From a virus (Duplodnaviria > Caudoviricetes): a stretch of DNA of 36,606 bases. A program made the position numbers and the translations under genes. The stretch spans positions 1 to 36,606 of the IMG/VR virus record IMGVR_UViG_3300020161_000625. One strand, given 5' to 3'. The notes beneath the pieces were generated by a model, which was not told the DNA's origin, did not search any database, and worked only from the letters and a program-made list of their open reading frames with translations. Below, in pieces: positions 1 through 23,471 of the stretch. Each line of letters starts with the position of its first letter. Position 1 is the first letter of the stretch.

Positions 1-3000
1 AACGCCGCTAAGTTCCTAAACGTCACGGTGGACCCGATTCTCCAGATGTCCACCGCCGCCCTGAAGCACGGCTACAAGGACGCCGCCTTCTTCGCTGGCC
101 TAGGGTACATGAACGACAGGGAGCGTGGCATGGTTGGAGGTGCCGCCATGGGCATGGTTTGGGGCGGATACAGCGGTGCCGTTCGTCATCTATGGAGCAA
201 CATCAACGGCTTCGTACAGCACGATAGGTTCATCAAGGACTTTGACGAGCGTCTCCTCCCCAAGTTGGAACAAGGCTGGAGCCCAGATTTTGCCGCTTTC
301 GCACGCAAAGTCGTCGCCGACGCAGACCTAGGCAAGTCCAGCAAGACTTCTGCAAATGCTAGGATGGTCCTTCAGCAGATGCACCTCATGCTTGACGCCA
401 AGCAGAAGAAGCAGGTCATCGCAGGCACCCTCCCTGCACCAGAAATGGCAAAGGTCCTCGCCGCCCGTGGCGTCGACAACCCGATGCGTTACCTTGACCC
501 AAGTGCAAAAGGCCAGTTCAGCCTAGTGCGTGACACGAGCGGTAACATCATCCCGCTAATCTGGCTTAACCCGCAAAAGTACAGGCCTGCCGACTTCGGG
601 CACGAAGTCTTGTCCCACATGGCAATCTGGAATCTCCAGACCCGTGGGCAACTTGGCACGCATCTGATTGAGTTCTTTGGGATTAAGGAGAATGAAGGTG
701 CCATTACCGACGAGAAGATGACTGAGGTCGCTCTGCGTATGTCCCTTGAGGAGGCCCTCAACAGGAAGCAGAACATGACCATCGAGGAGGCAAGGCAGGT
801 CGCCAACGAAATCTTCAATGCAGACGCAGATACCGTAGGTAGCCGTAAATACTTTGAAAGAGCGATTAAGGAGTTCAGGTCTGCTACGAATTTCAACCAT
901 TTTCACCAGACTATCGACATTAACGGCGAGCAGGTTCCTGCCATCTACGCCTCGACTAGGGGTGTCAAGGGAGAGCGTCAGTCTCCCATCCAATACATCT
1001 TTGAGGAGTTCATTGGTAAGCATGCTGAAAACATGTTTATCCACACCAACCTTCAGGACCTCGTCCTTTCCGCAGAGGACAAGCCGCTCAGGATGTACTT
1101 TGAACGCAAGTACACCGAGCGTCTTGCGAGGAACCAGACCGAACTAGAACTTGCTGGCGTCATCGCTAAATACGGTGCACCCTTGACCAAGGACGGTAGG
1201 CCTACCATTCAAGCCATGATTTACGACGACGGCGTCTACTACAGACACCCCGCCATGGACAACGTCCTCAAGAACATGCTTGAGGCCGCTAGGTCCGTCA
1301 ACGATGGCCCCATCAGCAACCTTTCTCCCGAGATGCAATTGGCCGTCGCCAAGAAGCACCGCAAGGAGTTCCTTTTCAACATCCGTGGCAATGGTGCTAC
1401 GCTCAAGGGCGAGAAAGAACGCAATGAGATGTCAGCCAACAACGCCAAGGGTGCGTTTGAGGTCATCGACGCCCTGCCAGAAGAACTGAAGCCCAAGATT
1501 ACGGTAGATGAGCACGGCAATAGGTCCGCCGACGTCTACACCATGAAGGACGAGGTCATCGACGCCATGGTGGATGGAGGATTCTTGGACCCAGAGTCTG
1601 GCCGTGTGGCCAAGGTGTTCAGGGATACCTACATGCAGTACGAGTCCAGCGGTTTCGCCACTGGCAACCTCGTGTACGGCATCAACATCGGCGACAGCCA
1701 CCGCACCTCCGTCGGCAACCTGTTTAAGCGTATTTTCGGAGACGATGTGCCAGCCACAAACAGGGTGTTTGTCCCGTTTGAACTTAAGGTCTACCTCAGG
1801 ACTACGGACGGAAACGGCAAGAACCTCAGGGCACCTAGGGGTGGCTTTACGGCCACCGTGATGGACTACACGGCCATTCACCGCAGGCAAATCAAGACGT
1901 GGTCCCGTGCTGACGTAAAAGCCCTCTGGTCTAATATCGGAGAGTTCAACGCAGACTTCCATGAGTATCTGTTGAACTTCCTGAAAGACCCTGCCAACCG
2001 TGTCGACTCTGCCACGTTGTTTAGGCCTAAGTTCGGAGCGGACGCAGAAAAGGTCAGGGACATCATGTATGAGACCTTCGGTGCCAGCAAGAGGAAGGAC
2101 GAGTCGTATTTCAACGCCCCTAGGGAAGGCTATTTCAGCAGTCACGAGAATCCGAACTTCCCGATTCATTCGCTGAAACTGGAGAACCTTATCGGCGTCG
2201 AGCGAATCTCTGCCGCACCGTTCCCCTACCACCATGGCAGGTCCTACGAGCCGCTTAGGCGTAACAAGTCCGTCGCTGGCTTTGAGGAAATCTCGGCCAA
2301 CATGTTCGGCAACGGGCAGGGCTATAGGGTAATCCGTGAACGCAACAGCGAGTCCAGCGGATGGAAGGTGTTCAGCCCATTTGGAGGCCTTGTTGGAAGG
2401 TACAGGGACAAGGACAAGGCGTTCAAGGCGGCTCAGAAGCACCTTCGCAAGGACATGGACCCAGCCGACGTGCTGGCTCTCCCCTCCGACGAAGAGTGGT
2501 CCCAGATGAACAGGCCAGAAAGGCTGAAGAGGATTCAGGAAGACAAGTTAAACTATCAGCAGTCCAAGATTCTCAAGGCAAGGGGGAGCCTGTCCGTGGA
2601 TGGCGTGAGGGAAGGCGGCATCGGCATTACCCTTCAACGTAACGAAGCCTCCGATTTCGTGAGGAAGATTTCCGACCCTAGGATGATTGGCAGGGGAATG
2701 AGCCTTCTTGATTTTTACCCTGAAAGCGAAAAGCAAAAGTTCAGGCAATACGCCATCAGCAACGGACTGCCTGAGAGATTCTTTGAAAGCATCCGAATCA
2801 GGCAAGACGACATGCCGTCCGACAAGAGGAAGGTGGACTTTGCCTTGCTTGGCTCGCCAATGGAAATCACTGAGCACAAGTCCGACTCACTCCCCACCAT
2901 CACTTTTGACAAGGCGTTCTTTGACGTCCTGTCGCAGGAAAAGGCCAATGAGGTGTTCACTGGCCTTATGGAGTCTCACCTGTCCAAGGTTGCACGCTCC

Positions 3001-6000
3001 TATCATGACGGAAACCTTTTAACCTCGTCGGTAGTCAAGAGGGTGGACAGTCTCTCCATCCAGAACAGGCCGATTCAGCAGTCTATCGCAGAGGGGTGGA
3101 AGTTGCTTTCTGACGCAAGGCTTGAGGGTAAGGAACTCCCGAAGGAATACAAAGCGGCATACGACGAAGTCGTCGCCAGACACGAGTGGTGCGAGGACGC
3201 AAAACAGCCTAGGTGGGAGCAAATTAGGAATTCTTCCAGCAACACCGAAATCAAGAAACTTTTTGATGAAGCATTGCTTGAGGGCAACAGTTCCGTCAGG
3301 CAAGCAGCCGTCAACAAACTGGACAATGTGTTTGGCGGAATTTGGAACAAGGCTGAGCACAAGGCCGTAATCGAATCACTCAGGCAACTTAACTTGGTCG
3401 ATAAGGAAGGCGTAGCCGTGCCCGTTGTGAACGCAGGAGGCCTCACCGTATTCATGTCTCCGAACATGGATTACTCTAGGAATGCTAGGGTTTTCAGGAA
3501 ATTCTTAGAGTCGCTTCCCGAATCCAAGAGGGCTGATTTCCTTTGGGTGGCCAAGGAGGCATTCAATCACACCCTCCATCAGCAATACAGCGACGTCCAG
3601 TACTCAGCCTTGGGAATCGACTCCTCTGGAATGCTGGATGTTGGAGCAAATCCGAACGTGCGGACTGGCGGAAGGCAGGTCATGCCAGAGATTGAGCCGC
3701 TTGCTGGAGCGGCCAGAAGGTCTAACTTTGTCTCTGTCAGGTACGAAGGCGACGCAAGTCAGTTGGTGACTGGAGTCGGTATTGTTTACAAGGTTTACAA
3801 TCTCAAGAGGGATTCAGTCAAGGGAGGCACAGAAGTCCCTACTGGAACCTTGCAAAACAATGCCAAGGCGTTGGCCCCGTTGCCCCCGTTCTCAGCACTG
3901 CCCAATACCATCGTCGACTATCTGACTGGTGCTAGGTTCGATAAATCCGAACTCCCAAACGTCGCCAGAGACCTTTCTTACATGCTGGTCTCTTCCGTCA
4001 AGGAGAGCGACCAGAACGTCGTAAAGGTATGGTCCCAATTCGCAAAAGACAATAGCCCGATGACCCTCGCACGGGGGCTATTCGACATTGCCTTGGATTC
4101 TGGCAATCAGGCTAGTTTTGAAATGGCCGTGTCGTTCAGGAAGTTGGCAATGGCCGCAGACGAAAACATGGCAAGGTCTAGGTTTGCTTCTAGGGGTTAT
4201 GATGCGAACCACCCCATGTATCAAGCCGAGTTACAGGCCGCACCCATGCGTTATTGGCATGAGGCTGTCGCAGACCACAATACGGATGCGGCCTCCCTTT
4301 GGGATGTCGGCGGAGAGAAGACTCTCATCGAGTTGCATTACGAATATGGCACCTCGTCCGAGTTCCACAGGCTGTTCGGTTACAATGCCGAAGCCCTGAC
4401 GAAACGTGTCGGAGCAAGCAGGGCTCGCCAGAAGAAGTTCCACGCCGCCGCAGAACAGACCTACAAGAGGAGTTTCTCCATGGGTGGCGTTGATGACCTC
4501 AGTCCCAGCAGGCGTGAAGAGGTCATTCGTTCTGGTTTGGCCAAGGAGATTAAGTTCGGCGGAAAGAACCTGCTCGTCTTTGAGTTCTCCGACGCAGACG
4601 CTTACCTCGACCTGTCTTCCGTACAGAACAAGCCCCACTTGTTGCCTTTCGCTGGCATGCCCGACGCAGAGCAGGCCTTCTCTGATTACGCATTCGAGGT
4701 GAAGCGTAGAGCGGCTGACCCGAAGTCCGAAAAGTACATCCCCTTCCACAAGCAAATCGGGAAAGACACCACCCTAGGAAAGGTCTTCGGCCACGAGACC
4801 ATGTACTACTACTACCCCGAAATGCGGGATGTCAGGGTACGATGGGTCGATGGTCATGGTGGCTACGCCTCTACCCTGCCCGACGGCGAACACATTATCG
4901 AACTTGGCATCAGGTCTTTCGCCAACTCGGAACTGAACATGAAGAACGACCCAGAAGGTCTTATCTTCAGCGACCCTCAGTCCGCCACCGCCAAGCATAT
5001 CGCCCAGAACCCGCTTGCGTCCATCATCCTGCATGAGGCACAGCACGTGCTCCAGTACAGGGCCAACATGGACAGCGAACATGGCCATTTTAACCAACTG
5101 AACAGGGAGATTACCATTGGTCACTTTGCCAACCTTCTTGGCCTGAGGACTAACTTCGCCGACGGCGAGGCCATTGGCAAGGCCATGAAGTTCAACTCCA
5201 TCTGGTCTGACGCAGACATCACCGCTACCAAGGACATCAACACTCTGGCCAGCAGGATTGCACTGGCCAAGGAATCCCCCGTCTTCAGGGAACTTAGCGG
5301 AAACGCAAGGCCCCTGCTTAAGACAGCCGTCCGCAACCTATCGGCTTTCGTGGCCGCTGAGGTTGATGCTGGCAGGATGGACGAATCCCTCTCTCGCAGG
5401 ATGCTTGCCCTAGATAGGGCTCAGGACGGCGTGCAGAATGTCCATGACGCTCTTTCCACGTACACGGAAATGATGGCGGTAAGGGAGGAACTCAGGAGCA
5501 AGTACCCGAGTTATTCCGCAAACATGCACTTCGACGTGGACTTCAGGGCGGCTACCTCTGCCCTTGGCCTCGTCAGGAGCGTGGTGGCCATCGAAAAAGC
5601 CACGCCTCAACAGCGTAAGTTGCTTATTAGGCAGGCGTTTGATGAGTTCATTGACTTGGATTACATCATGGCCCCCTCCGAAAGAATGGCCCGTGAGACC
5701 GAGAACAGGCGAATGCTCAGTCAGGAGGAACTCGCAAAGACTCCTAGGACCTATACCACGGACGCCCTGCCTCAGGGTTCTGTCCTTGGCATCATTCAAA
5801 GGGCCATGGATTCGTCCACGGTGGAAACGACAAAAGGCCTGATGGAAAAACAGACCGCCTCCCTTGACGCATTTGAAAAGGACGGGTATGTGAGCCCCAT
5901 TAAGACGGTCATGATGTCCATCGGCGGCATCGAAGGCAATGCCACCGCAGACAACACTGCGTTCACGTTGCTCGGCAAGATGTCGCTGGCTAGGTTCTTC

Positions 6001-9000
6001 CTTTCAAAGGCCAGCACCGAATACACCAACATCAGGAGGTTCTTCGTCCAGCAGAAGGGCTGGGAGGTAGTCGACGGCAAGATGACGCTGGTCACTGGCA
6101 ACTACGTGGTCTCTGGAGATTTTGATTCAGCAGTCAGGTCATTGGCCAAGAAGTTCAGGCCCGATTCCGTGGAAGAAGGTGAGCGTACCGCCTACGCTCT
6201 TGGCGGCATTGCCAAGGAAAGCGGAACCTACACCATTGCAGACATTGCTGAAATCGCAGGAATCAAGATTGAGTCTGAAGACATCCTGAGCCTCGGCAAT
6301 TCCGTCATGGATAAGGTCGCCAGCGATGAATTTCCGCCCGTATTCACGGTCAAGGAAATCAAGGGGTTGCTTGGTGACTACAATCAGGAATCGGCGTCCG
6401 TCGTCCTGCTTGACTACGTCGTCGAGAGGATGAACCCAGACAGGGTGCTCACGAAGAACGACCTGCTTAACATCATGGCGTTCAACCATTCCGACATGGA
6501 GATGCTTTACAACGTGTCCGAGATGAACATCGGCACAAACAGGGCAAAACAAGTCACTGGAAGGCCAGTCACGAAGGAGATGAAGATGAGGGTTCTCAAA
6601 CTTTACCCTCAGCAAGTCAGGAGCAAGATTGTCAGGATTCTTGAAGCGTCTCACGATGGCAACCACGGCAGGCCGTTCTATGGCCGTGGCAAAGACTACA
6701 AGTACGGAAGGTTTAAGGTACATGGAGGACAAATCACTTTCGAGGCACCTCATTTCAATGATGCGTTGTCGGCTGGAATTCCGCCTGCGGACGTAGCCGC
6801 ATTCAGGGAGAGGCTGGCTAAGGGAGTAAGCCAGAGAATCGTCCAGCACAGCGTCAACATGACGAAGAACGAGGCTTATGAAATCGCCGCAAAGATGAAC
6901 GACAGGATGGTCAGGCTTTCCATCCTGATGGAGCCTGTCATGGAAAAGGCCTATGAGTTCGTAGTCCAGCAGAACAACAGCAGTCCAGAAAGGGCCAGAA
7001 TTCTGTGGATGTCCATGATGGAGGACGTCGAAATCGCCGCCCTTAGGATTGCCTTCTCCGACCAGTACTCTGGACAGAAAGCAAACACCATGGACATCTA
7101 CGCTAGGGTTGGCGGGATGGAAGGCACGGTCAACGCCACCGAGCAGGCCGCACGTGGCCTCCAGAGAGTCTTCGGCGAAACCTCGCCAGCGGCTAAACTT
7201 AGGGAATCTGGCGGCATGAACCAAAGGGGTCGAAGCACGACCCACCCAGTCAGCGGACTCATGCCGTCACTGCATATGCTACATGGCAACTTCTTGTTTG
7301 GTAGCGTTCCAGCGGAAGGATTTGCAAGAGTGGAGTCAGGCGTAACCGTAGCCCCCGCTCAAGCCATGCACCTCAAGGAGAGGAAGTATCTTGGCATCGT
7401 CTCCGAGGCCAACATGTCCAATCAAGACACTGGCGGTGGCCTTACTGACTACCTCACTGGAGCCCAGCACGCCCTGACCGAGCAGTTCAAATACGTCCAT
7501 GGCAACTGGAGCGACGGCGACATGGGTGGCGTCATGGGCAGAATGCGTGGCTACGTCGAGGCTGTCTCCAAGAGGGCCGAAAACACGGCGGACATGAAAG
7601 AAAGGCTTTTGAGGGTCCAGACTGGCCTCAGGATGAATGAAAGCAGACAAAACCTCATTGCGGGAGAATGGCAGGGCGAGCAAATTTTCAAGAGAGTGGA
7701 CGCCCTGATGGCGGATGGCATGTCCCAAGACCAAGCGTTTGCCAGCCTTCTGAACGAACTCGACAGGAGAATCGAGATGGCGAAAGCCGACGAAGCGGAC
7801 CTCGCCGACATCTTGACGATGCAGTTGGACTCAGTGTCCTTATTTGCGGCCAACCATGGTGCGGTGATAGCGGACAAGAACGGCATGCCTAGGCACCGTG
7901 GCGGAGACGAAGCCCCGATTGAGGTAATGACCCCTCATAGGTTCGTCATGAACTCTTCAGTTCAGGCGGCTGGAACCTCAGCAATCCAAATCAGGGACAA
8001 GACCTTCGTAGATGTCGACCTGTCCCTTGCCGAGCCAGACCAGCCTACCTCCGTCGTCGTTCCTGCGATTGGCGTCGAGCAAGGCATGCCGTCCGCCGTG
8101 CAGAAGCAGATGAACATGACGGCACACGCCATCGAGGGCGTGATTACTGGACTTATCGGCTCCGCCGTGAAGCGGGACGAGCAAATGGTCCTGTCTCCGC
8201 TCAGGCAAAACCCCTTGATGCTTGGTTATCTTGAAAGGCTGAATCCAGAAAATCAGGTAGCCCAAGGTGATGGAGCCGAAATGACCACTAACGCTTACTC
8301 CGTTATCGGCGGTCAGATGTACGCAAGCCACAACACGTTCGTGTCATACCATGACATGATGACGGCTGGAAGCCGTGACCTGCTCAGGTTCGCCACGGAT
8401 AACCTTCGTGACCAAATCAACACGGACTACCAGACGGGTGGCATCTTCGGCAGTCCTGCAATGACCCGAAACGCCTTCCTAAGCGGTAATAGGCTGAATC
8501 ACGGCGTCCTTGGCCTGATGATTGCTCCTTACCTGCTGGCACATGATTCGCTCGGCTTCCCAGTCACCTCGGGCGAAAACATCTTGCACAGGTCTCGTGG
8601 CATCAGGACCGAAAAGTTCCTTGAATTGGTCGAGATGGCCAAGGAGGCCGACATGCGTGACCAGACCAAAGCCGCCGCCTTCAACTCAAAACTCACCGAG
8701 TGGATTGGCGGAATGGATGCTGGTTACCTACAGCGTCTTCTCTATGAGTGCTCTAGTGCCTCCGTAATCGACGGCGTCGTCCTCAGGATGAACATGCTCC
8801 AGATGCACGTCTTGGCCTCGGAGCACCCGACTAGGGCTGACAGGCTGAACAAGGCCAATGAAATGGGTGCCATCCATGGATTTGACGACTTTTTTGGCGA
8901 CAGTGGGTTGTACACAAGCGACGGGCTCAAGGGCAAGCACCCTGAAGTCAATCGCTACATGCACGCCAGAATCAAGGAGTCGTCCCTGAACCCCGACATG

Positions 9001-12000
9001 TGGCGGGGCGTGTTCTTCGGCCTAGCCGCCGCAAAGGAAATCGAGACCCGCAGGCCCAGCCTTCACCCCTATGTGGGGCACGGCAAGGTCAGGAACAGGT
9101 CAAAGGTGTACATGCAGGGCGAAGAGACGCTGGTTTATGGAAGGCCGATGCCTTCCCATAGGAGAAGCACTTCCGACGGCCTCGACGTGGATTCATTCCC
9201 TGTCGATAGGTACGACTCTGAGTCTGGCTTCGGCGGTGCGTATGGCACGACGAACAAGCGTAAGAGCATCGCCCAGACCGACATATTCGGCCTTGTGGCA
9301 GGCAATGAAAGCACGAGAACTCACCTACAGAGTGAGACCCCCGTCAGCCTGTTCGATGCCATCGGACACCATGTAGACTCCGTCCGTCAGGCGATGCCGA
9401 TAGACGTAGAAGGAACCTCGTCTGGAGTTAAGGACGCTTGGTATACGACAGACGTCAGCGGTAGTGTCATAACCCCCTTCACGGTAGGGACGGGCGACAG
9501 GACGTCCAATGTCACGGTGCAGACCCGCAAGCACCCGATTGGCGTCGTATCTAGGCGTAAATTACTTGTGAACAGGCTTGCCGCCGCCGCAGAGCAACTT
9601 GGCTCTGCCGAGGTTTCCGTACAGCCAGCCCGATTCACCTCCTCGAAGCGTGTTCAAGCCACGTTCAAGGGAATTTCCACCAAGGACAGGAGGGCCGAGA
9701 TGTTCTACGAGCAGGACAATGTGGCCATCGCCTTCAGCGGACAGTCCTTTGTTTCCGCAAGGTATTCGGAGAGGGACAGGCCCAGCCTTGGGTTTGCATG
9801 GAAGCGTCTCGAAGACGGACGCATCATGCTGAACATCTCGCCAGATACCAACATTGGCGGCTATCTGGACCTCACGAACGGCACCGAGTACAACACCCCG
9901 CTAGGGTTTTCGCATAGGCGTACGCTGGGATGGGACGTCGAATCTGGCATCCTGACCCCCATGTCTCCTCTGGCGATAATCAGGAGGTTCGCCTCGATTA
10001 GGGACAACAACCCTGTCGCAAGCCGTGCGGCCTCGCACATGGATTTCATCGACCCAATGGTAAGGGCTCAGTACGAGGCCAGTGCCAAGGCTACCGCACA
10101 GCGTGTCTATGGAGGCTCTAACATCAAGAGCATGTCGAAGCAGTTACTCTCCAAATACGGCGGCAAGGGAGATGCTATTTATGACGCTTACCAGAGAATC
10201 ATGAGCGGCGACAGGGTCATGGACTTTGACGACTTCACCAATGAAGACGCCAAGATTGCTAGGGTTCTTGCCATGGCAGAATTCTCCTCCATGGCCAGCC
10301 CTGAGGACGGATATGTCTCTGTCATACTCCCCGCTAACGCCACAATGGCGGACATTCAGCATGCGTTCTTCACTCAGGTAGCACACAACGGTCTCCTTCT
10401 TACCAGCGAACGATATGGCCAGAACCAGAAGAACGGAACGTTCAGAAGGGGCGGCTCTGGCTTGCCAGCGGACGGAAGCCCGCACCTGAACGGTTTTGCC
10501 ACCACGAGCGAGATTGCGTCAGTCAAGTCGGCTATCGACAACTATCTCGCCATCAGAATCGACAATAGGGCCGCAACGAAGGCACGGCCTTCCGATTTCG
10601 GCTATGCGGATACTGGTGCACAGAAGGGCACTTCGACGACCACACAGAGCATCCAGATTTCAGCCCAAAGGTATGGCCTTCTCATGCCGTCAGTGTTTGC
10701 AGACTTGGGTAAGTTGCATGAACGACTGACGTCTTCGGAGGGCGGATACTTTATGCCCGACGTCGAAAGGTCCATTGCACTCAACGGAGACAGGTCCGCA
10801 GTCATCGACCTTATCATGCCCAACTCCCCGCACCTGCAAAGGTATGCTTGGGACGCACAGGGCAAGGCCAACGTCTCTATCATCAGGAAAAGCGACAAGA
10901 GTGGATACCTCGTCGGCCACGACGTCGTCAGCGGCGTCGACAAGGCAGGCAACCCGATTAAGACCCGAAAGGTCTCCTCGTTCAGGACCGAAAGCGAAGC
11001 AAAAGCCCACGCAGACAGGGTTTCTCAGGGAGGAATCGAAGCGGAAATTCCTTCAATCTTGTTCAGGGAGGGCCAATTCAGGCTGGAAGACATCGACCCT
11101 TCCCTTGCCCACAGCCGCACAAGCGGCAAGGCTGACGTCAACGCAGGCCTCAAGTTCAACCCAGAGTTCGTCTCTGACGTTGCGGAGACTTACGACGGCA
11201 ATGAGAAGAACATCTTCACAGCCGATGGCACCTACTTCGTGGGCAACGTCGACAAGACGTTTGCAAGCCGTGCTGAGGCTAAGGCCGCTCAGGAAATGCT
11301 CCTTAGGACTGAAGCCATCACTGGCAAGGCACCGTCTAGGGACAGGATTAACCTGTCGGTGGGCGATGTCGGCGTGTATGAGCATGACATCCGCCGTGGA
11401 TTGCAGTTCGCAGTCGGAGGTTCTTACATCCAGTTCGCCCCCAAGGCACTGAGCATCCTCAGGACGGCCATGGTTCCGATGATGGAGCGTAACAAATCTG
11501 GTGCACTCAAGAAGGTCAAGAAAGCGGTCGACATTGCGACTGGCAACGAATGGTACGAGATGTTCATGGAGAATCAGGTGTCCAAGGCCGAGATGCGTGT
11601 CTTGGGTCTGGCCGAGTTCCTCTACGACCACAAGGAGCACAAGATTACCAAGCAGGAAGTCGCCAAGTTCATCTGGGCCATGTACCCGACCACTGGACGC
11701 CTCAATCACGAAAAACTACAGACGCCCTATGTGGGCAATGTGACCTCCCCTACCGTCGCCATCAGGTCCGCCGCACACAGGCTTCTGGCCGAACGCAACA
11801 GGCACTTGAAGACTATTGAGGCCGCAATCGAATCTGCACCAGAGGACCAGAAGGGCGAGATGGTCGCCTATCTGGCCAACATCCGCAAGATGCACGATGA
11901 TGCTCTCAAGTCTGCACTCGAGCAATTCTACGAAAAGGACAGGGCTGAGGCGATTGGTTCGAGGCCTGACCTTCTTGAAAACGCATCCGACATCAGCAGG

Positions 12001-15000
12001 GATGCCCTGCCAAAGCGTCAAACCGTAGACATGATGCTTAACGATTTTAGGAACTTCGACGCCATCACTGAGCCAGTCATGGCAACGTACAGGCACCTGT
12101 TCAATGACGCCTTTGCTAGGGCTAGGCTGGAGGCATCCGCCCGTCTCTCAGGATTCGACCTAGCCATCGCCGATTTTAGGACCTCGGACACCACATTGAA
12201 CGAGATTTCAAACTGGGGTCTGGCGATGAACACGTCTTATCATGGCTCTAGGATTGAGCCTCCGCCCATGAGACAGGTCACTGGCAAGGGCGTTCAGAAC
12301 CAAGTGACGCAGGCCGACGCATCTGCGTACGGACTTCAGCACGTCGACTCCGTCCCTGATTATGTCGGATACACCAGCGGCATCGGCTCCTACCGATGGG
12401 ATACCTTGTATACGGACTTGGAAATCCAAAAGGGCGAAAACTACGTCCGTAGCCTCAAGGATATGGCCAACCTCGAGTCCGACCCAGCCAAGAAAGAGGC
12501 CCTGTTGCGACAGCACAAGTCTGCTGAGCGTATCATGTCGGTCAGGAAATCTGCGAAGTCGGCCACAAGGAACAGCGGCCATAAGAACACCCCGACTGGC
12601 ACCATGCAACTTGGCCATGCACGCCACAGCGACGTCATCGTGACGGCGTATCATCGTGCCAACGCACCCATCGCAGAGGTCGCAAGTTCGCTGAAACTCA
12701 GCCGTGATACCATCGCAGTGCTTGGCATCGAGGAACTTCAGTCGGACCCATACCAAGGCTCCACCTTCGGCCCTAAGCAAAACGCCATGCTCGGCTCCAC
12801 ATTCGAGCAAGTCGAAGCCACGTCCCTAGTAAGTGAGTTCAGGCTGGTGGAACAGAAAATCGCCGACAAGGAGAACGCTAAGGCCAACATCTCCGCACCG
12901 CTTGCGTACCTCACCCACAGCACCAAGCAAAAACACAGAGACGCACTGTATAACTTCATCGCAAGGTACGAATGGGACAACGGAACTCCGCTGTTCAGGT
13001 ATCTGATTGCAAAAGATTACCTTAGCCAAAACAACGATACCTCGGTCACTTTCGACCACGGGGTTCGCCACAAGATAAGCAAGGAAGTTCAGGAACAGTA
13101 CGGCATAAAGGAAGATTACGTGCCAGAAGTCGTGTTCGACTTAAACTATGACGGAGGCGTGCACATGATTCTGTTTGAGAAGATTCATGAGGACTCGCAG
13201 GGCAACATGTCTCCGATAGAGTCAGACCTGTATTCCCTGCTCTACGGATACGGCAACAACGAGCACGCTGGACTTGTCGGAACCTCTACGAGAGCGATGT
13301 TCAGGTATTCAAGCAACACTAACCCGCATGGGTTGGCCACGCTTGTTGCAACTGTCGGCCTGCAATTCAACAAGGAGTTCATGTCTAAAATAGACGAACT
13401 CGGCCAGTACTATGAGTTGGACATGGATAGCGTTGAGAGGCCTCCCGTAGACTACGACAAGGTGGCGATGGAAAGCCTGCTAGACTTTAGGCGTAGGGTC
13501 GAGAAGGCCACTCCCGATTCACTGCCTAGCGGTCACCCAATGCGTGCAAATCATATGCTTTTCAAGCAGTGGAAGTCCACAACCCTGAGAGCCGTCAGAT
13601 ACCTTGAACTCGCTTACTACGAAGAAGGCTCCCAAATCGTTGACTTCAAGAACAAGCGTACCTCGCCGCATGTGAACAGGGGTGAATACCACACCGCCGA
13701 TACGCCTGAACTCATGGGAAGCAAGATGCCCGTCATCCTTTCTGTTGCCCGAATCAATGAATACGTTTCTTCGGCAGCATCCTACAGTAAGGAAAAGGTT
13801 ACCATCGCCCAAGCCGCTCAGAACGCCAAGAAGATACTCGACAGAATCAATGCGGGGGTGGGGCATAGATTCCTTGAACTCAGGCCTGTGCATCAGGTTG
13901 CCTTCGACCTCAGGTTGCGTGCCCAGATTCTAGGCATGGAGCCGTCTGCTTTCGTCGACCACTTGGACAGGACGAATTACCCAGACAGCGACTGGCCTAC
14001 TGGCTCGGTGACCAAGGAAAGGGCTGAAATCATGCGACTGACGTTGACCGAACCAGACAAAGTCACCGCCGAACAATTAGAACAACTTGACGAATCAGGC
14101 CACAAGTTGCTCAGGGTCACCGACGTCGACTTGGATTCGACCAGCGGATACGCATTGTCGAGGTCTAGGGTCTCCCAGCCTTCGCATGCTAGGACTATGC
14201 TTGGACGCATCTTCGAGAACAACGCCCCAGCCATCATCAATACGTACCTTGGCCACACGCCAGACCCTGAACTGGACGGGCTGAAAGCAAGGTACAACGA
14301 ACTCAAGGCCAAGTTGGGCGACTCTATCGCAGGTGAGTTTGATTACCCAGACACTATCCCGCTAGGCGAAGACAATGCCTACCGTGGCGTCATGACCAAT
14401 TGGTACGCCATGAGGGCACTCCAGTCCAGAAAGGACGCACTTGTCGTCATGGACGCACGTCACCACAGGGCACGCTACTCGTCTAACAGCAACTTCGTCA
14501 CCCTGTATAACCTCGGCGGCGGCATACTCGCACCTATTCATACTGGTAGCATGAAGAAGCGTCAGATACTCGCTGTCGGGTATATGCTTCATGAAGCCAA
14601 GAAGCAAAAGACACACGGCGGCTTTATCGAGGCCCTGCATGCTGGTCAGTTCCCTGATGCCTTCTTGTCTGGTCAGGCATCTATGGAATGGAACGGCGTG
14701 AACAACAACTTCAAGACTCACATGAGGCTTGCGGCCAATGAAATCGTGGCCCAGATGCCCGAACTCACTAGGGACTCGAACACCATGCTTATCAACGCCG
14801 TGGATACCTTGATGGACTTGGTGCTCCTCGGCGACAACAGGTTTGGAAACGACGAAATCAACAACTTGAACAAACTCATCGCCTCTGTCCGCTCTGGCAG
14901 GATGACAAAGGAAAGGGCCATCCAAGCAATCGAAGGCATGACCGACGGCAAGGACATCGCCAAGCGTGTCTTCACGCACTTTGAGAAGCCTCAGGGCGTC

Positions 15001-15912
15001 ATCATGAACGTCCCCATCGGACGCACGCATGGCTACGCCACCAACTACGGTGCACCCCTGTGGCACAACAAGTTGTATTACTCTGGCATGCAGGACACCC
15101 TTATCAATCAGGTGTCCCACGACGCCTTTGAAATTCCTGACGTCAGCATGCGTGACGGAAAGTACGTCGTCACGGACAAGAAGACGGGCAAGGTAATCGC
15201 CGAGGGCATCTCGTCGTTCGACGAAGCACAGGAGCGTGCGGCACAGAGTGCCAAGTACCTCGGTGCGGTCCCCATCGTCTCGAACTTCCTCAAGACGTTC
15301 GGCAAGATGGGGGGCTACGCCATGGAGGGCTTCATGATGGCCACTAACAAGAATGAGTCCCAGACGTCTCAGGTCCTCGTGGACACCATGAAGCATGACC
15401 TGATTGCACCTTACACTGGGATGAGCAAGACTGCTGGCATGGCTGGTGCGGCTGGCATGACCCAAAAGATGGGCAGTTCTTTCGGCAACTTCCCGATGCC
15501 TGATGCCAATAGCATGCCCGTCGAAGGCACCAGTGCTGTCAATCGAATCGAGGCTAGGCACGGGGTGTTCGGCCCAGACATGTCCGAAGACACAGTCAAC
15601 ACCGCCCTTGAGCACGCCACGGCCTTGCACGCCATGGGAGTCAGGGCTGGAGCCGACTCCGAGCAGATTGCCGCTGGCTTGCACAGGCTCGGAGGCTTCA
15701 CTGGCCCGATGCTTGTCATCAGACCCAAGTTCCCTACGGCCAACCACATGGCCGAAGCCAAGAAGGCCATCGTCCAAGGCATCCCCTTCATGTCCGTCAG
15801 CGGCGTGGACAAGCCTCAGGTAATGGCCAAGGAAGCCGCCAAGATGTACAAGTGGTACGCAAAGGGTGCCAAGAACCAGAACGAATATGAATCCAGAACC
15901 CAACTTAACTAA
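1..15912 (+). CDS. Giant virion-associated polyvalent protein (5'-truncated, >5,300 aa) with zincin-like metallopeptidase motifs and an LPD23-like region; probable internal/ejection protein
   Basis: Frame is open from base 1. Motifs: HEVLSH (601-618) with downstream EEF; FEFSD...LGKVFGHETMYYYYPEMRDVRV...ILHEAQHVLQ (HExxH at 5032-5046); GH...LGHAR...IEELQSD (12727-12747). Lies just before the lysis genes. Confidence 0.75.
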   Translation, partial: NAAKFLNVTVDPILQMSTAALKHGYKDAAFFAGLGYMNDRERGMVGGAAMGMVWGGYSGAVRHLWSNINGFVQHDRFIKDFDERLLPKLEQGWSPDFAAFARKVVADADLGKSSKTSANARMVLQQMHLMLDAKQKKQVIAGTLPAPEMAKVLAARGVDNPMRYLDPSAKGQFSLVRDTSGNIIPLIWLNPQKYRPADFGHEVLSHMAIWNLQTRGQLGTHLIEFFGIKENEGAITDEKMTEVALRMSLEEALNRKQNMTIEEARQVANEIFNADADTVGSRKYFERAIKEFRSATNFNHFHQTIDINGEQVPAIYASTRGVKGERQSPIQYIFEEFIGKHAENMFIHTNLQDLVLSAEDKPLRMYFERKYTERLARNQTELELAGVIAKYGAPLTKDGRPTIQAMIYDDGVYYRHPAMDNVLKNMLEAARSVNDGPISNLSPEMQLAVAKKHRKEFLFNIRGNGATLKGEKERNEMSANNAKGAFEVIDALPEELKPKITVDEHGNRSADVYTMKDEVIDAMVDGGFLDPESGRVAKVFRDTYMQYESSGFATGNLVYGINIGDSHRTSVGNLFKRIFGDDVPATNRVFVPFELKVYLRTTDGNGKNLRAPRGGFTATVMDYTAIHRRQIKTWSRADVKALWSNIGEFNADFHEYLLNFLKDPANRVDSATLFRPKFGADAEKVRDIMYETFGASKRKDESYFNAPREGYFSSHENPNFPIHSLKLENLIGVERISAAPFPYHHGRSYEPLRRNKSVAGFEEISANMFGNGQGYRVIRERNSESSGWKVFSPFGGLVGRYRDKDKAFKAAQKHLRKDMDPADVLALPSDEEWSQMNRPERLKRIQEDKLNYQQSKILKARGSLSVDGVREGGIGITLQRNEASDFVRKISDPRMIGRGMSLLDFYPESEKQKFRQYAISNGLPERFFESIRIRQDDMPSDKRKVDFALLGSPMEITEHKSDSLPTITFDKAFFDVLSQEKANEVFTGLMESHLSKVARSYHDGNLLTSSVVKRVDSLSIQNRPIQQSIAEGWKLLSDARLEGKELPKEYKAAYDEVVARHEWCEDAKQPRWEQIRNSSSNTEIKKLFDEALLEGNSSVRQAAVNKLDNVFGGIWNKAEHKAVIESLRQLNLVDKEGVAVPVVNAGGLTVFMSPNMDYSRNARVFRKFLESLPESKRADFLWVAKEAFNHTLHQQYSDVQYSALGIDSSGMLDVGANPNVRTGGRQVMPEIEPLAGAARRSNFVSVRYEGDASQLVTGVGIVYKVYNLKRDSVKGGTEVPTGTLQNNAKALAPLPPFSALPNTIVDYLTGARFDKSELPNVARDLSYMLVSSVKESDQNVVKVWSQFAKDNSPMTLARGLFDIALDSGNQASFEMAVSFRKLAMAADENMARSRFASRGYDANHPMYQAELQAAPMRYWHEAVADHNTDAASLWDVGGEKTLIELHYEYGTSSEFHRLFGYNAEALTKRVGASRARQKKFHAAAEQTYKRSFSMGGVDDLSPSRREEVIRSGLAKEIKFGGKNLLVFEFSDADAYLDLSSVQNKPHLLPFAGMPDAEQAFSDYAFEVKRRAADPKSEKYIPFHKQIGKDTTLGKVFGHETMYYYYPEMRDVRVRWVDGHGGYASTLPDGEHIIELGIRSFANSELNMKNDPEGLIFSDPQSATAKHIAQNPLASIILHEAQHVLQYRANMDSEHGHFNQLNREITIGHFANLLGLRTNFADGEAIGKAMKFNSIWSDADITATKDINTLASRIALAKESPVFRELSGNARPLLKTAVRNLSAFVAAEVDAGRMDESLSRRMLALDRAQDGVQNVHDALSTYTEMMAVREELRSKYPSYSANMHFDVDFRAATSALGLVRSVVAIEKATPQQRKLLIRQAFDEFIDLDYIMAPSERMARETENRRMLSQEELAKTPRTYTTDALPQGSVLGIIQRAMDSSTVETTKGLMEKQTASLDAFEKDGYVSPIKTVMMSIGGIEGNATADNTAFTLLGKMSLARFFLSKASTEYTNIRRFFVQQKGWEVVDGKMTLVTGNYVVSGDFDSAVRSLAKKFRPDSVEEGERTAYALGGIAKESGTYTIADIAEIAGIKIESEDILSLGNSVMDKVASDEFPPVFTVKEIKGLLGDYNQESASVVLLDYVVERMNPDRVLTKNDLLNIMAFNHSDMEMLYNVSEMNIGTNRAKQVTGRPVTKEMKMRVLKLYPQQVRSKIVRILEASHDGNHGRPFYGRGKDYKYGRFKVHGGQITFEAPHFNDALSAGIPPADVAAFRERLAKGVSQRIVQHSVNMTKNEAYEIAAKMNDRMVRLSILMEPVMEKAYEFVVQQNNSSPERARILWMSMMEDVEIAALRIAFSDQYSGQKANTMDIYARVGGMEGTVNATEQAARGLQRVFGETSPAAKLRESGGMNQRGRSTTHPVSGLMPSLHMLHGNFLFGSVPAEGFARVESGVTVAPAQAMHLKERKYLGIVSEANMSNQDTGGGLTDYLTGAQHALTEQFKYVHGNWSDGDMGGVMGRMRGYVEAVSKRAENTADMKERLLRVQTGLRMNESRQNLIAGEWQGEQIFKRVDALMADGMSQDQAFASLLNELDRRIEMAKADEADLADILTMQLDSVSLFAANHGAVIADKNGMPRHRGGDEAPIEVMTPHRFVMNSSVQAAGTSAIQIRDKTFVDVDLSLAEPDQPTSVVVPAIGVEQGMPSAVQKQMNMTAHAIEGVITGLIGSAVKRDEQMVLSPLRQNPLMLGYLERLNPENQVAQGDGAEMTTNAYSVIGGQMYASHNTFVSYHDMMTAGSRDLLRFATDNLRDQINTDYQTGGIFGSPAMTRNAFLSGNRLNHGVLGLMIAPYLLAHDSLGFPVTSGENILHRSRGIRTEKFLELVEMAKEADMRDQTKAAAFNSKLTEWIGGMDAGYLQRLLYECSSASVIDGVVLRMNMLQMHVLASEHPTRADRLNKANEMGAIHGFDDFFGDSGLYTSDGLKGKHPEVNRYMHARIKESSLNPDMWRGVFFGLAAAKEIETRRPSLHPYVGHGKVRNRSKVYMQGEETLVYGRPMPSHRRSTSDGLDVDSFPVDRYDSESGFGGAYGTTNKRKSIAQTDIFGLVAGNESTRTHLQSETPVSLFDAIGHHVDSVRQAMPIDVEGTSSGVKDAWYTTDVSGSVITPFTVGTGDRTSNVTVQTRKHPIGVVSRRKLLVNRLAAAAEQLGSAEVSVQPARFTSSKRVQATFKGISTKDRRAEMFYEQDNVAIAFSGQSFVSARYSERDRPSLGFAWKRLEDGRIMLNISPDTNIGGYLDLTNGTEYNTPLGFSHRRTLGWDVESGILTPMSPLAIIRRFASIRDNNPVASRAASHMDFIDPMVRAQYEASAKATAQRVYGGSNIKSMSKQLLSKYGGKGDAIYDAYQRIMSGDRVMDFDDFTNEDAKIARVLAMAEFSSMASPEDGYVSVILPANATMADIQHAFFTQVAHNGLLLTSERYGQNQKNGTFRRGGSGLPADGSPHLNGFATTSEIASVKSAIDNYLAIRIDNRAATKARPSDFGYADTGAQKGTSTTTQSIQISAQRYGLLMPSVFADLGKLHERLTSSEGGYFMPDVERSIALNGDRSAVIDLIMPNSPHLQRYAWDAQGKANVSIIRKSDKSGYLVGHDVVSGVDKAGNPIKTRKVSSFRTESEAKAHADRVSQGGIEAEIPSILFREGQFRLEDIDPSLAHSRTSGKADVNAGLKFNPEFVSDVAETYDGNEKNIFTADGTYFVGNVDKTFASRAEAKAAQEMLLRTEAITGKAPSRDRINLSVGDVGVYEHDIRRGLQFAVGGSYIQFAPKALSILRTAMVPMMERNKSGALKKVKKAVDIATGNEWYEMFMENQVSKAEMRVLGLAEFLYDHKEHKITKQEVAKFIWAMYPTTGRLNHEKLQTPYVGNVTSPTVAIRSAAHRLLAERNRHLKTIEAAIESAPEDQKGEMVAYLANIRKMHDDALKSALEQFYEKDRAEAIGSRPDLLENASDISRDALPKRQTVDMMLNDFRNFDAITEPVMATYRHLFNDAFARARLEASARLSGFDLAIADFRTSDTTLNEISNWGLAMNTSYHGSRIEPPPMRQVTGKGVQNQVTQADASAYGLQHVDSVPDYVGYTSGIGSYRWDTLYTDLEIQKGENYVRSLKDMANLESDPAKKEALLRQHKSAERIMSVRKSAKSATRNSGHKNTPTGTMQLGHARHSDVIVTAYHRANAPIAEVASSLKLSRDTIAVLGIEELQSDPYQGSTFGPKQNAMLGSTFEQVEATSLVSEFRLVEQKIADKENAKANISAPLAYLTHSTKQKHRDALYNFIARYEWDNGTPLFRYLIAKDYLSQNNDTSVTFDHGVRHKISKEVQEQYGIKEDYVPEVVFDLNYDGGVHMILFEKIHEDSQGNMSPIESDLYSLLYGYGNNEHAGLVGTSTRAMFRYSSNTNPHGLATLVATVGLQFNKEFMSKIDELGQYYELDMDSVERPPVDYDKVAMESLLDFRRRVEKATPDSLPSGHPMRANHMLFKQWKSTTLRAVRYLELAYYEEGSQIVDFKNKRTSPHVNRGEYHTADTPELMGSKMPVILSVARINEYVSSAASYSKEKVTIAQAAQNAKKILDRINAGVGHRFLELRPVHQVAFDLRLRAQILGMEPSAFVDHLDRTNYPDSDWPTGSVTKERAEIMRLTLTEPDKVTAEQLEQLDESGHKLLRVTDVDLDSTSGYALSRSRVSQPSHARTMLGRIFENNAPAIINTYLGHTPDPELDGLKARYNELKAKLGDSIAGEFDYPDTIPLGEDNAYRGVMTNWYAMRALQSRKDALVVMDARHHRARYSSNSNFVTLYNLGGGILAPIHTGSMKKRQILAVGYMLHEAKKQKTHGGFIEALHAGQFPDAFLSGQASMEWNGVNNNFKTHMRLAANEIVAQMPELTRDSNTMLINAVDTLMDLVLLGDNRFGNDEINNLNKLIASVRSGRMTKERAIQAIEGMTDGKDIAKRVFTHFEKPQGVIMNVPIGRTHGYATNYGAPLWHNKLYYSGMQDTLINQVSHDAFEIPDVSMRDGKYVVTDKKTGKVIAEGISSFDEAQERAAQSAKYLGAVPIVSNFLKTFGKMGGYAMEGFMMATNKNESQTSQVLVDTMKHDLIAPYTGMSKTAGMAGAAGMTQKMGSSFGNFPMPDANSMPVEGTSAVNRIEARHGVFGPDMSEDTVNTALEHATALHAMGVRAGADSEQIAAGLHRLGGFTGPMLVIRPKFPTANHMAEAKKAIVQGIPFMSVSGVDKPQVMAKEAAKMYKWYAKGAKNQNEYESRTQLN

Positions 15913-17483: not shown

Positions 17484-17512
17484 GTATGTGCGTGTTCTGG
17501 GTGGAAAGGTTT

Positions 17513-17584
17513 TGGCCCTACTAGGAATCGAACCTAGATTAAGCGTTTAGGAAACGCCTGTCCTATCCGTTGAACGATAAGGCC
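17513..17584 (-). tRNA. tRNA-Arg(CCU), CCA not encoded
   Basis: GGCCTTA-TC-GTTC AACGGATA GGAC-A-GGCGT TT CCT AA ACGCT-TAAT-CTAGG TTCGATT CCTAG-TAGGGCC-A forms a complete cloverleaf. Confidence 0.95.
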
Positions 17585-17592
17585 AAAGTTGG

Positions 17593-22498: not shown

Positions 22499-22699
22499 TT
22501 AGCGGCTGAGGCCCATCAGGACTGCCATGTCGCCCTTCATGGTCTTGCGACCACCGTTGTGGGCATGCGAGCAGATGATGACCTTGTTGCCTACGAAGGC
22601 GTCGAGGATGAGCAGGAACTGCTCAGAGACACGGCGTCCGTTGGTCTGTTTTGCCAAGGCCTTGATGGCCGAGGGCTTGATGTACTTGTATTTTCTCAT
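22499..22699 (-). CDS. Histone-fold protein (66 aa)
   Basis: IKPSAIKALAK (alpha1), GRRVS (L1), long helix, GRKTMKGD (L2); parallels RVS...GRKTIKAED of archaeal HMf and GRKTV of bacterial histones. Confidence 0.7.
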   Translation of the reverse strand: MRKYKYIKPSAIKALAKQTNGRRVSEQFLLILDAFVGNKVIICSHAHNGGRKTMKGDMAVLMGLSR

Positions 22700-22742: not shown

Positions 22743-22841
22743 TTACCAGATGAGGCCGACGGTCACGCAGAGGGCTACGAGAATAGCCGTGTCGATTACG
22801 AGGGCGACGACCCAGAGGGTGCCGATTTGTTGTTTGTTCAT
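22743..22841 (-). CDS. Small single-pass membrane peptide (32 aa)
   Basis: MNKQQIGTLWVVALVIDTAILVALCVTVGLIW after an ACACATAC-ATG leader. Confidence 0.6.
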   Translation of the reverse strand: MNKQQIGTLWVVALVIDTAILVALCVTVGLIW

Positions 22842-22864
22842 GTATGTGTTGGGTTGGAAAGTTG

Positions 22865-22927
22865 CAGGCTCGGCTATGCTAGACCGACTTACGCCCCGAC
22901 GTGTTCTCACGCACGTGAAGGGACCTG
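22865..22927 (-). ncRNA. Structured RNA Z1 (three-way junction), paralog of Z2
   Basis: CAGGT/GCCTG closing stem, CCCT/GGGG plus ACGTG/CACGT arm, CGTAAG junction, TCGG/CCGA hairpin; compensatory changes relative to Z2. Confidence 0.7.
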
Positions 22928-22933
22928 TGGTTA

Positions 22934-23001
22934 TTGAGGTTCGGCCAATGCCTAACCGACTTACGCTTGGACGTGCTACCATACACGTTTCAAGACCTCA
23001 A
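22934..23001 (-). ncRNA. Structured RNA Z2 (three-way junction), paralog of Z1
   Basis: TTGAGGT/ACCTCAA closing stem, CTTG/CAAG plus ACGTG/CACGT arm, CGTAAG junction, TCGG/CCGA hairpin. Confidence 0.7.
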
Positions 23002-23006
23002 ATTGA

Positions 23007-23082
23007 TAGGCCTGTAATGCCAGTGGGCGAGCGTTCCAAGGCTCTATAGTTGGGGAACTGCCCAGTCTGCAAGTGTGGCCTA
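23007..23082 (-). ncRNA. Structured RNA Y (long interrupted hairpin)
   Basis: TAGGCC/GGCCTA, TGC/GCA, TGGGC/GCCCA, GTTCC/GGAAC stems; bounded by the same CAATTT-type spacers as the tRNAs. Confidence 0.5.
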
Positions 23083-23089
23083 AATTGAA

Positions 23090-23166
23090 ACCCCAGCAGG
23101 AGGATTACTCCTGCCTTTTAGCACATGCCGACGGTAATGCGAGATACGTTACGGTTATGCGTGGGT
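23090..23166 (-). ncRNA. Structured RNA X (three-way junction)
   Basis: CCCA/TGGG closing stem, GCATA/TGTGC arm, TAAAAG junction, GCAGGAG/CTCCTGC hairpin; CAATT spacers on both sides. Confidence 0.5.
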
Positions 23167-23169
23167 AAT

Positions 23170-23243
23170 TGGTGGAGACTAAGGGAATCGAACCCTCATC
23201 ACACGGATGCCATCCGAGTGTACTGCCATTGTACTAAGTCCCC
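23170..23243 (-). tRNA. tRNA-Ala(GGC)
   Basis: GGGGACT...CTCGG AT GGC AT CCGTG...GAGGG TTCGATT CCCTT AGTCTCC ACCA; G3:U70, A73, A32-U38, encoded CCA. Confidence 0.95.
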
Positions 23244-23247
23244 AAAT

Positions 23248-23322
23248 TGGTGGAGGCTAGGGGAATCGAACCCCTACCGAGCGGATGCAAACCGCCCGTG
23301 CTACCATTATCACTAAGCCCCC
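23248..23322 (-). tRNA. tRNA-Ala(UGC)
   Basis: GGGGGCT...GGCGG TT TGC AT CCGCT...AGGGG TTCGATT CCCCT AGCCTCC ACCA; G3:U70, encoded CCA. Confidence 0.95.
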
Positions 23323-23326
23323 AAAT

Positions 23327-23401
23327 TGGTGGATGATTGGGGAATTGCACCCCTGTATGTGTCGTGGCCTCTAATGCCTGACATAGTCGCTAGACTCACC
23401 C
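23327..23401 (-). ncRNA. Non-canonical tRNA-Ala-like RNA resembling the tmRNA tRNA-like domain (75 nt)
   Basis: GGGTGA/TCATCC-ACCA acceptor with G3:U70 and A73; GGGG TGCAATT CCCC T-arm; no normal D arm (TCTAGCGAC); elongated central arm. Confidence 0.65.
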
Positions 23402-23405
23402 GTAG

Positions 23406-23420
23406 ATTGTTAAAGAACAT
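23406..23420 (-). promoter_or_regulatory. boxA-like antitermination element
   Basis: - strand ATGTTCTTTAACAAT versus the boxA consensus TGCTCTTTAACA, just upstream of the RNA array. Confidence 0.7.
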
Positions 23421-23443
23421 GGTGCGTTAATCACCATGCATTC

Positions 23444-23471
23444 AACATGACGTTATGTAGTCCTACGTCAA
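23444..23471 (-). promoter_or_regulatory. Probable sigma70-type promoter for the RNA array and early operon
   Basis: TTGACG-16 bp-CATGTT, followed by a CATGGTG/CACCATG hairpin and boxA. Confidence 0.45.

Follow-up and report, generated by a model that had tools for sequence, protein, structure and literature searches.

What would a phage gain from carrying a run of small structured RNAs beside its tRNA genes? The question is raised by a 36,606-nucleotide record of a tailed virus (Duplodnaviria; Caudoviricetes; IMG/VR record IMGVR_UViG_3300020161_000625), the whole of which was analysed and is called the window here. An array of seven units lies at 23401-22865 on its - strand and consists, in the order of transcription, of a tRNA-like RNA (U1), two tRNA-Ala genes and the RNAs X, Y, Z2 and Z1 (Table 1). 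All seven units fold, U1, Y and Z show covariation at the level of the phage family, the tRNAs are repeatedly swapped between related loci, and a promoter-like motif and a boxA-like leader are conserved. We think that the array is a modular cassette of tRNAs and structured-RNA units exchanged between related phages, which may serve as an early anti-defence kit of backup tRNAs and decoys, and we hold this reading with about even confidence. A phage tRNA operon with accessory RNAs is known as such; the RNA families in this one are new.

A preliminary description of the window had listed seven consecutive folded units of 63-77 nt on the - strand, following a promoter and boxA and mostly separated by CAATT(T) spacers, and had interpreted them as an alanine-themed system. 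The units are present with the sizes given, the spacers were found as CAAT(T/A/C), and ARAGORN calls both tRNA-Ala genes, each with a cloverleaf, an NGC anticodon, G3·U70, A73 and CCA. A terminal stem closes every unit, the spacers between units being of the tRNA type, and neither the number of copies nor their order is fixed. As for the promoter, the motif TTGAC-N16-CANNNT is kept in 20 of the 21 loci tested while the spacer otherwise drifts, so that the earlier call stands as a conserved motif; it does not match the sigma-70 consensus, and a sigma-70 scan does not call it. Relatives have a different hairpin at the position of the leader hairpin, which is boxB-like, and the boxA label is borrowed from rRNA operon leaders. 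It is likely that the array is transcribed as an early polycistron of tRNAs and non-canonical structured RNAs, as first proposed. An Rfam search of the window at E<=10 gave tRNA-clan matches only, apart from noise below threshold. For X, Y and Z there was no relevant match in Rfam 15 in the window (E<=10) or in sets of 9 (E<=5), 11 (E<=2) and 5 loci (E<=5). No ribozyme, CRISPR or tracr family of Rfam was matched in the window or the relatives searched.

Homologues were collected by pattern and protein searches at the same locus, downstream of the same 159-aa-type open reading frame (ORF), and after removal of duplicated and truncated loci the comparison comprised 33 loci of one phage family, several of them still near-identical. 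Left out of it were L012, L016-22, L024-26, L028, L033, L034, L043, L045, L049-56, L058, L060, L062, L063 and L065, and L133, L134 and L139, found later and all of Arg type, also stand outside. Chance pattern matches (L001, L002, L004, L006), two tmRNA ends (L067, L068) and a match inside a coding gene (L144) were dropped, and 20 of 25 new loci from a later search scored under 19 bits. A search of plasmids gave no match, and cultured phages matched only via the tRNA-like part among the matches listed.

The tRNA slot differed widely among the 33 loci. Two Ala tRNAs occupied it in six loci and Arg(ACG) in nine; Met(CAU) with two irregular tRNA-like RNAs was found in four and an irregular CAC-loop RNA in another four, and the remaining loci carried His, Tyr, Pro or Phe+Phe (two each), Asn+Asn (one) or Trp+Cys (one). 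The cassette is thus a mosaic with free gain and loss of units. In the tree of the marker protein, a His locus (L009) was nested among Ala carriers (99/96), another (L011) was sister to the Ala+Ala locus L031 (97/93), and the Asn locus L039 grouped with the near-identical Phe phages L040/41 (99/97); long-branch warnings touched only deep joins. The identity of the tRNA therefore switches between phages 93-99% alike in the marker protein, and it is unlikely that phages with a common codon usage would need them. Tandem pairs for the same amino acid (Ala, Phe, Asn, Arg) would raise the dose of a tRNA.

These swaps bear on a rival explanation, in which the tRNAs add to the supply for particular codons, and the early transcript is processed or stabilised in cis by X, Y and Z, or cleaves itself at them. 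The separate tRNA-Arg(CCU) gene of the window fits AGG, the commonest Arg codon of the phage (261/587), GCC and GCA are its commonest Ala codons, and Z is also found directly upstream of protein genes. However, the tRNA changes between closely similar phages, the units have terminal stems of their own and a free copy number and order, and no Rfam ribozyme family was matched, so we regard this explanation as rather unlikely.

U1 combines alanine acceptor marks with a remodelled body. It has G3·U70, A73, an encoded CCA, a mini D hairpin from nt 7 and the T loop UGCAAUU, and its middle arm contains an unpaired CGACA and a variable terminal loop (AU-UAG-AG in the window). The family was present in 19/33 loci and a related form, U1b, in three, together 22/33; U1b, which ARAGORN missed, folds as a cloverleaf whose anticodon stem is long and whose loop carries UGC. 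G3·U70 is invariant in the ten aligned members while acceptor pairs 4, 5 and 6 each show two-sided change in 4/10, so the alanine feature of the preliminary description is real in this sense. The D hairpin of 3-4 bp covaries, the T stem is kept, and CCA is present in all types but that of L036, which ends in UCA. A D loop with AG goes with the T loop UGCAA in 9/9 cases and one with GG goes with UUCGA in 5/5, even in the otherwise near-identical pair L005/L035, which suggests that a tRNA elbow with an 18·55 contact is maintained. On the 3' side of the middle arm CGACACA is invariant. The terminal loop reads N-U-NNN-A-N in seven of eight types, with the triplets UAG (window), UGA, CAA (twice), UAA, UAC and CCU, and UA-CCC-AA, lacking U33, in the eighth; as the register was chosen by eye (a script placed that of the window differently) and the lineages are related, the anticodon-like loop is a lead only. 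A D-armless tRNA-like RNA, a separate observation, occurs in L036 (~3124-3192) and in L059, L064 and L066 (~2314-2382), where its anticodon-like triplets (CCU, CAU, CAC) differ among near-identical phages; it lies beside an irregular CAU tRNA and a second tRNA, initiator-like, whose anticodon stem is altered.

The closest known molecules to U1 are two. The tRNA-like-domain (TLD)-only tmRNA of mycobacteriophage DS6A, which lacks a coding sequence (PMC4131195, PMC11915505), shares with U1 the small size, alanine acceptor marks, T arm, CCA and absence of a tag frame. In contrast to that RNA, U1 has a covarying rather than stemless D arm, its T loop with G55 is paired with a D loop of the A18 type, and the anticodon-like loop caps a long arm. 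The window U1 has no Rfam tmRNA match and its family members score 13-39 bits, below the gathering threshold of 47, where a plain tRNA-Ala scores 32. A TLD-only tmRNA was thus rejected for U1 on the D loop and the Rfam score, although the alanine acceptor marks agree. Allo-tRNAs and irregular-tRNA polycistrons (Mukai et al., PMC5389517) share G3·U70 with non-Ala anticodon-type loops, the polycistrons and a suggested link to toxin systems. Their acceptor branch is 8/4 or 9/3 (PMC5389517), whereas that of U1 is 7/5 in L005 and L015 and 6 bp plus mismatches plus 4 bp in the window; U1 also lacks a variable arm and has an internal loop in the anticodon-like arm, and its branch argues against an allo-tRNA. 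A true TLD-only tmRNA was seen in an unrelated phage (L057, 2500-2563, - strand): 64 nt, 59 bits on Rfam tmRNA, no message domain, beside tRNA-like genes.

The likeness to tmRNA invites a reading as host takeover, in which U1 would titrate SmpB, AlaRS or EF-Tu and Z, X and Y would titrate host RNases or RNA-binding regulators, shifting translation to phage mRNA. A TLD-like molecule has been described to inhibit tmRNA strongly, perhaps via titration of SmpB (PMC4131195, PMC11915505), and both the tmRNA scores of U1 members and their invariant alanine identity would agree with it. However, the scores stay below the tmRNA threshold and an ordinary tRNA-Ala reaches 32 bits, the D hairpin of U1 covaries, and a housekeeping target leaves the rapid turnover of the modules unexplained. 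We therefore find host takeover unlikely.

Structural selection is also evident in Z, a three-way-junction RNA in which P1 ends in GGY/RCC and is followed by P2, a CGYAAG linker and P3. Among 25 distinct sequences, aligned by MAFFT without fitting to the structure, 86.5% of cells are paired and 16 of 21 pairs are changed on both sides; 77 cells show two-sided change against 23.7 in shuffles (0/500 as many, a significance inflated by the relatedness of the sequences), and in slid controls the paired fraction drops to 27-43%. The invariance of CGYAAG is partly circular since the linker formed part of the search motif, and a variant, GGUAAA, scores 22-24 bits. With the model, built from 25 copies, 28 copies were detected, spread over 18 of the 28 sources from the family. 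Clean Z-type folds were also detected in long non-coding stretches of two unrelated phages. One is a provirus of actinobacterial type, where Z precedes an HNH gene (34 bits, z -4.3); the other is a 40-kb phage, where Z ends the non-coding stretch (27 bits, z -2.7). In 151 genomes of the phylum of genome G001 the model gave one weak match in a coding region. The loops of P3 vary from 5 to 13 nt. When P3 was compared with 48 real anticodon arms (E. coli and a Rhodococcus genome), Met-CAU was best or tied for 8 of 21 distinct P3s and Ala for 2; the Met-CAU matches were often tied with Cys and others, and one loop is identical to a Met-CAU loop. Mimicry of the initiator-tRNA anticodon arm is thus a weak lead.

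Further ideas about Z were rejected. Z bears a likeness to the c-di-GMP-I riboswitch fold, the features of which are an unpaired ligand-binding junction G and C and a GNRA P2 loop, and its GYAA turn and receptor-like internal loop in P2 are reminiscent of a tetraloop and its receptor. A c-di-GMP-I-like aptamer or sponge was dropped because the GGY/RCC pairing across the 25 sequences closes the junction, the P2 loops are not GNRA and Rfam gave no match. Kissing of the P2 and P3 loops as the cause of CAU conservation was dropped as well (complementarity 7.40 vs 7.38 in permutations, 2478/5000 as high), as was an encoded CCA, with ACCA right after P1 in just 5/29 copies. Two side observations concern sequences next to Z-like RNAs. 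An unannotated non-coding stretch upstream of one (L123 1564-1682, - strand; L143 343-481) is common to phages of Arthrobacter, Rhodococcus and Microbacterium near HNH or terminase genes and has no Rfam match, and a ~30-nt part of it matches Serratia, Erwinia and Pantoea phages. In the unrelated 40-kb phage, about 650 nt with no evident + strand gene (L112 ~900-1560) end in the Z-type RNA and are possibly another RNA array.

Y occurs in 12/33 loci and X in 7/33. Y is an interrupted rod with abundant two-sided change (Table 1). X is a loosely conserved three-way junction, for which automatic alignment was poor, with a 6-nt A-rich linker in 6/6 sequences. The tRNA-linked HDV-like (theta) ribozyme is a self-cleaving nested double pseudoknot directly after a tRNA; X follows a tRNA but parses as a three-way junction, and it matched no Rfam ribozyme, although no pseudoknot-specific search was made. 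Some eight more modules that are not tRNAs recur in the family and were matched by blastn only: V, W, Q, R, S, T, Z' and a leader junction. The last is a three-way-junction leader between promoter and boxA in L003, L007, L008, L023, L042, L044, L046 and L047, of which P1 and P2 are constant and P3 is wholly different among near-identical phages; modules V, W, Q, R, S and T occur in these loci and in other loci of the family. That the units are so freely gained and lost would also be expected of neutral or selfish modules, shuffled by recombination at the repeated spacers with no benefit to the phage. The strong compensatory change and the invariant unpaired motifs argue against such modules, and we consider this explanation highly improbable.

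The preliminary description had gone further and proposed that every unit displays the anticodon-loop word of tRNA-Ala (NN-NGC-AU), soaking up one nuclease specific for tRNA-Ala or GCAU. All seven words are present as described, and so are the ten GCAT on the - strand; the count on the + strand is 0 rather than 1 wholly inside 22861-23440, as a palindrome straddles the edge. Dinucleotide shuffles hold 3.3 GCAT on average and 4 of 5000 reach 10, but the excess is modest given that the word was chosen afterwards: 431 of 5000 shuffles hold some 4-mer at least 10 times, and stretches of 580 nt in other parts of the genome contain 8-9. GCAU persists in the P3 loop of 15/27 Z RNAs though the flanking loop bases vary, and in the Z2 of L027 it is gone from the P3 loop and present in the P2 loop. 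This persistence is, however, confined to one subfamily of Z loops whatever the tRNA, including loci with Arg, His and irregular tRNAs; the first homologue seeds came from a pattern that required GCAT, and P3 resembles Met-CAU arms more often than Ala arms. GCAU is found in 2/10 aligned U1, only in the window type, where G-G-C is a strand of a stem; the word of X (CU-CGC-AU) is present in 2/6 sequences; and in Y (6/10) G-C-A forms one side of a helix of 3 bp, maintained by compensatory change, for which the closest relative has A-C-A facing U-G-U. A loop mimic in every unit is thus not confirmed. In the 22/33 loci parsed for GCAT, the four Ala cassettes have 3-6 vs ~2 expected, two being the tRNAs themselves, and the 18 cassettes without Ala tRNAs have 24 in total vs ~26 expected. 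The non-tRNA units are mostly found without Ala tRNAs (16/22 U1-type loci). GCAU was thus dropped as a universal motif, and its excess in the window probably stems for the most part from the anticodon loops of the two true Ala tRNAs, from two Z loops and from chance. That the system targets tRNA-Ala or GCAU is largely refuted, and we regard it as very unlikely. The observation behind it is partly confirmed and its interpretation partly supported: an anti-defence role is plausible, and the alanine-only theme is not supported.

An anti-defence kit is suggested by the slot swaps, the tandem pairs, the precedents in other phages, the structural selection on Z and U1 and the occurrence of Z in two unrelated phages. 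In such a kit, the host RNA polymerase would make one antiterminated transcript, from which host RNases may free the units at the C/A/U-rich spacers, and the repeated spacers could double as crossover points for the exchange of modules. The backup tRNAs would make good the loss of any host tRNA that is attacked by a defence nuclease. U1 would fold into an L shape, be charged with alanine and show its changeable anticodon-like loop, either to bait a nuclease or to decode as a stop-gap. As for Z, X and Y, each might bind some host protein, the three acting as decoys for different ones.

Precedents exist for both halves of this proposal. PARIS is reportedly among the defences met by phage tRNAs. 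Phage tRNAs overcome retron-Eco7 (T5 tRNA-Tyr) and PrrC (tRNA-Lys vs PrrC170; PMC11555353), amplification of T6 tRNA-Tyr overcomes Septu (PMC13096335), and escape at the anticodon loop has been described (PMC10264068). Shared with these are an own promoter, duplicated tRNAs for the same amino acid and variation between related phages; unlike there, a 47-49-kb family here has one or two canonical tRNAs in one swappable slot amid several non-tRNA RNA families. As to RNA mimics, Racrs are said to counter defence, as is the pseudo-ToxI of phage phiTE. Viral sgRNAs act as decoys for Cas9 (10.64898/2026.06.01.729453). All are small RNAs of phages for which sequestration of an immune protein of the host has been proposed or shown, but no likeness to CRISPR repeats, tracrRNA or repeated pseudoknots was found in our units. 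Mimics of type III antitoxins are tandem near-identical short pseudoknot repeats. The units, of different folds and 63-77 nt each, were therefore rejected as such a mimic. Structured phage RNAs other than tRNAs and of unknown function are also found in RNAC and RNAD of T4, GOLLD and ROOL, which are linked to tRNA clusters; these are fixed single families, whereas about ten short folds are mixed here at one locus. No account of the cassette or its folds was found in the open-licence literature; the supplements of Fremin et al. 2023 (PMC10690425), which may list the folds as candidates, contained in their searchable part none of 6 contig ids or 6 motifs.

Several points weigh against an anti-defence kit. 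The counts overstate independence, as the loci are one related family with several near-duplicates. Copies of Z also lie between protein genes downstream in L005, L007, L023, L042 and L047, and together with the Z before the HNH gene they would fit a cis-acting role in processing or stability equally well. In GTDB, searched by marker protein and U1 pattern, there was no prophage or binned copy of the locus. In one metatranscriptome the array had a depth of 3-5, like the neighbouring genes, and carry-over of DNA is thus possible. Finally, the nearest precedent for extra small RNAs in a tRNA-bearing phage is RNAC and RNAD of T4, late RNAs of unknown function (PMC9697503).

A bolder form of the anti-defence kit would see an RNA-only hotspot with about ten interchangeable new folds, U1 being a reprogrammable alanine carrier and Z a general phage decoy fold used in unrelated phages. 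The U1 loop (UAG, UGA, CAA, UAA, UAC, CCU) would be swapped to match the host tRNA destroyed by a defence nuclease, as it is free to change if AlaRS reads G3·U70 and ignores the anticodon. U1 could then bait the nuclease, or insert alanine at the starved codon so that translation continues, and Z would present a variable bait loop on a lone-pair GYAA junction. We put this form forward tentatively and think it doubtful.

As to the genomic setting, the 36.6-kb record is 76% complete (CheckV) and encodes a terminase, an SU10-type capsid, Erf, exonuclease VIII and a DnaC-like loader. Relatives reach 47-49 kb, and the capsid has under 30% identity to those of cultured phages. The labels of public runs in which the stretch occurs are freshwater, aquatic, lake water and wastewater. 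The array stands at the head of a - strand block of small ORFs and replication genes, which is probably the early region. Homologues of the 32-aa ORF sit right after the array in relatives, which use the ATG at 22841; a 79-aa ORF overlapping Z (22982-22743) is not conserved, and protein coding was rejected for it. Two genes downstream of the array, a 66-aa ORF (22499-22699, - strand), conserved in relatives, looks like a histone fold: in a structure search of the ESM Atlas, bacterial clusters matched it at TM 0.71-0.74, under the naming bar of the tool, and PF00808 makes up 69% of one such cluster, and a PDB sequence search gave no match. A 5294-aa ORF (28-15912, + strand) has no Pfam match within its first 4991 aa. 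Half of a palindromic DNA motif (CAACGACTTAC) lies at ~23502-23492 (- strand) and upstream of the promoter in relatives; of nine family loci tested, eight have it, and L057 has it 12 times within 5 kb. The motif, which resembles the Z core CGUAAGUCG when read as its reverse complement, is possibly a protein-binding site.

Table 1. Features of the array and its surroundings in the window.
Feature	Position	Strand	Basis and remarks
ORF, 159 aa	23521..24000	-	Upstream of promoter; no PHROG or Pfam match; marker for collecting homologous loci
Predicted promoter, -35 hexamer TTGACG	23466..23471	-	TTGAC-N16-CANNNT conservation
Predicted promoter, -10 hexamer CATGTT	23444..23449	-	16-nt spacer from -35
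Leader hairpin	23417..23439	-	Just upstream of boxA; 8 bp, z -3.4
boxA-like antitermination word	23408..23419	-	Sequence; like words at the same place in 22 parsed loci
U1, tRNA-like RNA	23327..23401	-	Fold and family alignment
tRNA-Ala(UGC), encoded CCA	23248..23322	-	ARAGORN; same gene in 5 related loci
tRNA-Ala(GGC), encoded CCA	23170..23243	-	ARAGORN; Rfam tRNA 59 bits
X, three-way-junction RNA	23090..23166	-	P1, P2 (closing CGY/RUG), A-rich linker of 6 nt, P3; conservation loose
Y, interrupted rod RNA	23007..23082	-	11/18 predicted pairs changed on both sides
Z2, three-way-junction RNA	22935..23000	-	P1 ends GGY/RCC, no linker to P2, CGYAAG linker, P3 hairpin
Z1, second Z-family copy	22865..22927	-	Same fold family as Z2
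ORF, 32 aa, hydrophobic	22743..22841	-	Closes cassette in most relatives; first protein of predicted transcript
tRNA-Arg(CCU)	17512-17585	-	Separate gene, far end of - strand block

The RNAs with which phages are known to counter defence act singly, as a tRNA or as a mimic of a CRISPR or toxin-antitoxin RNA. In this family of aquatic phages, a single small locus combines a swappable tRNA slot with several uncatalogued RNA families supported by covariation, and its units vary like the small anti-defence proteins of early regions. Units of 60-80 nt could be expressed and screened against panels of defence systems, which makes the role of extra small RNAs beside phage tRNAs directly testable. With U1, nature also provides a test case for a minimal scaffold of Ala identity in which the tRNA elbow changes in a coupled way. 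If the cassette is an anti-defence kit, the pattern of swaps would predict which tRNA the defence of each host attacks.

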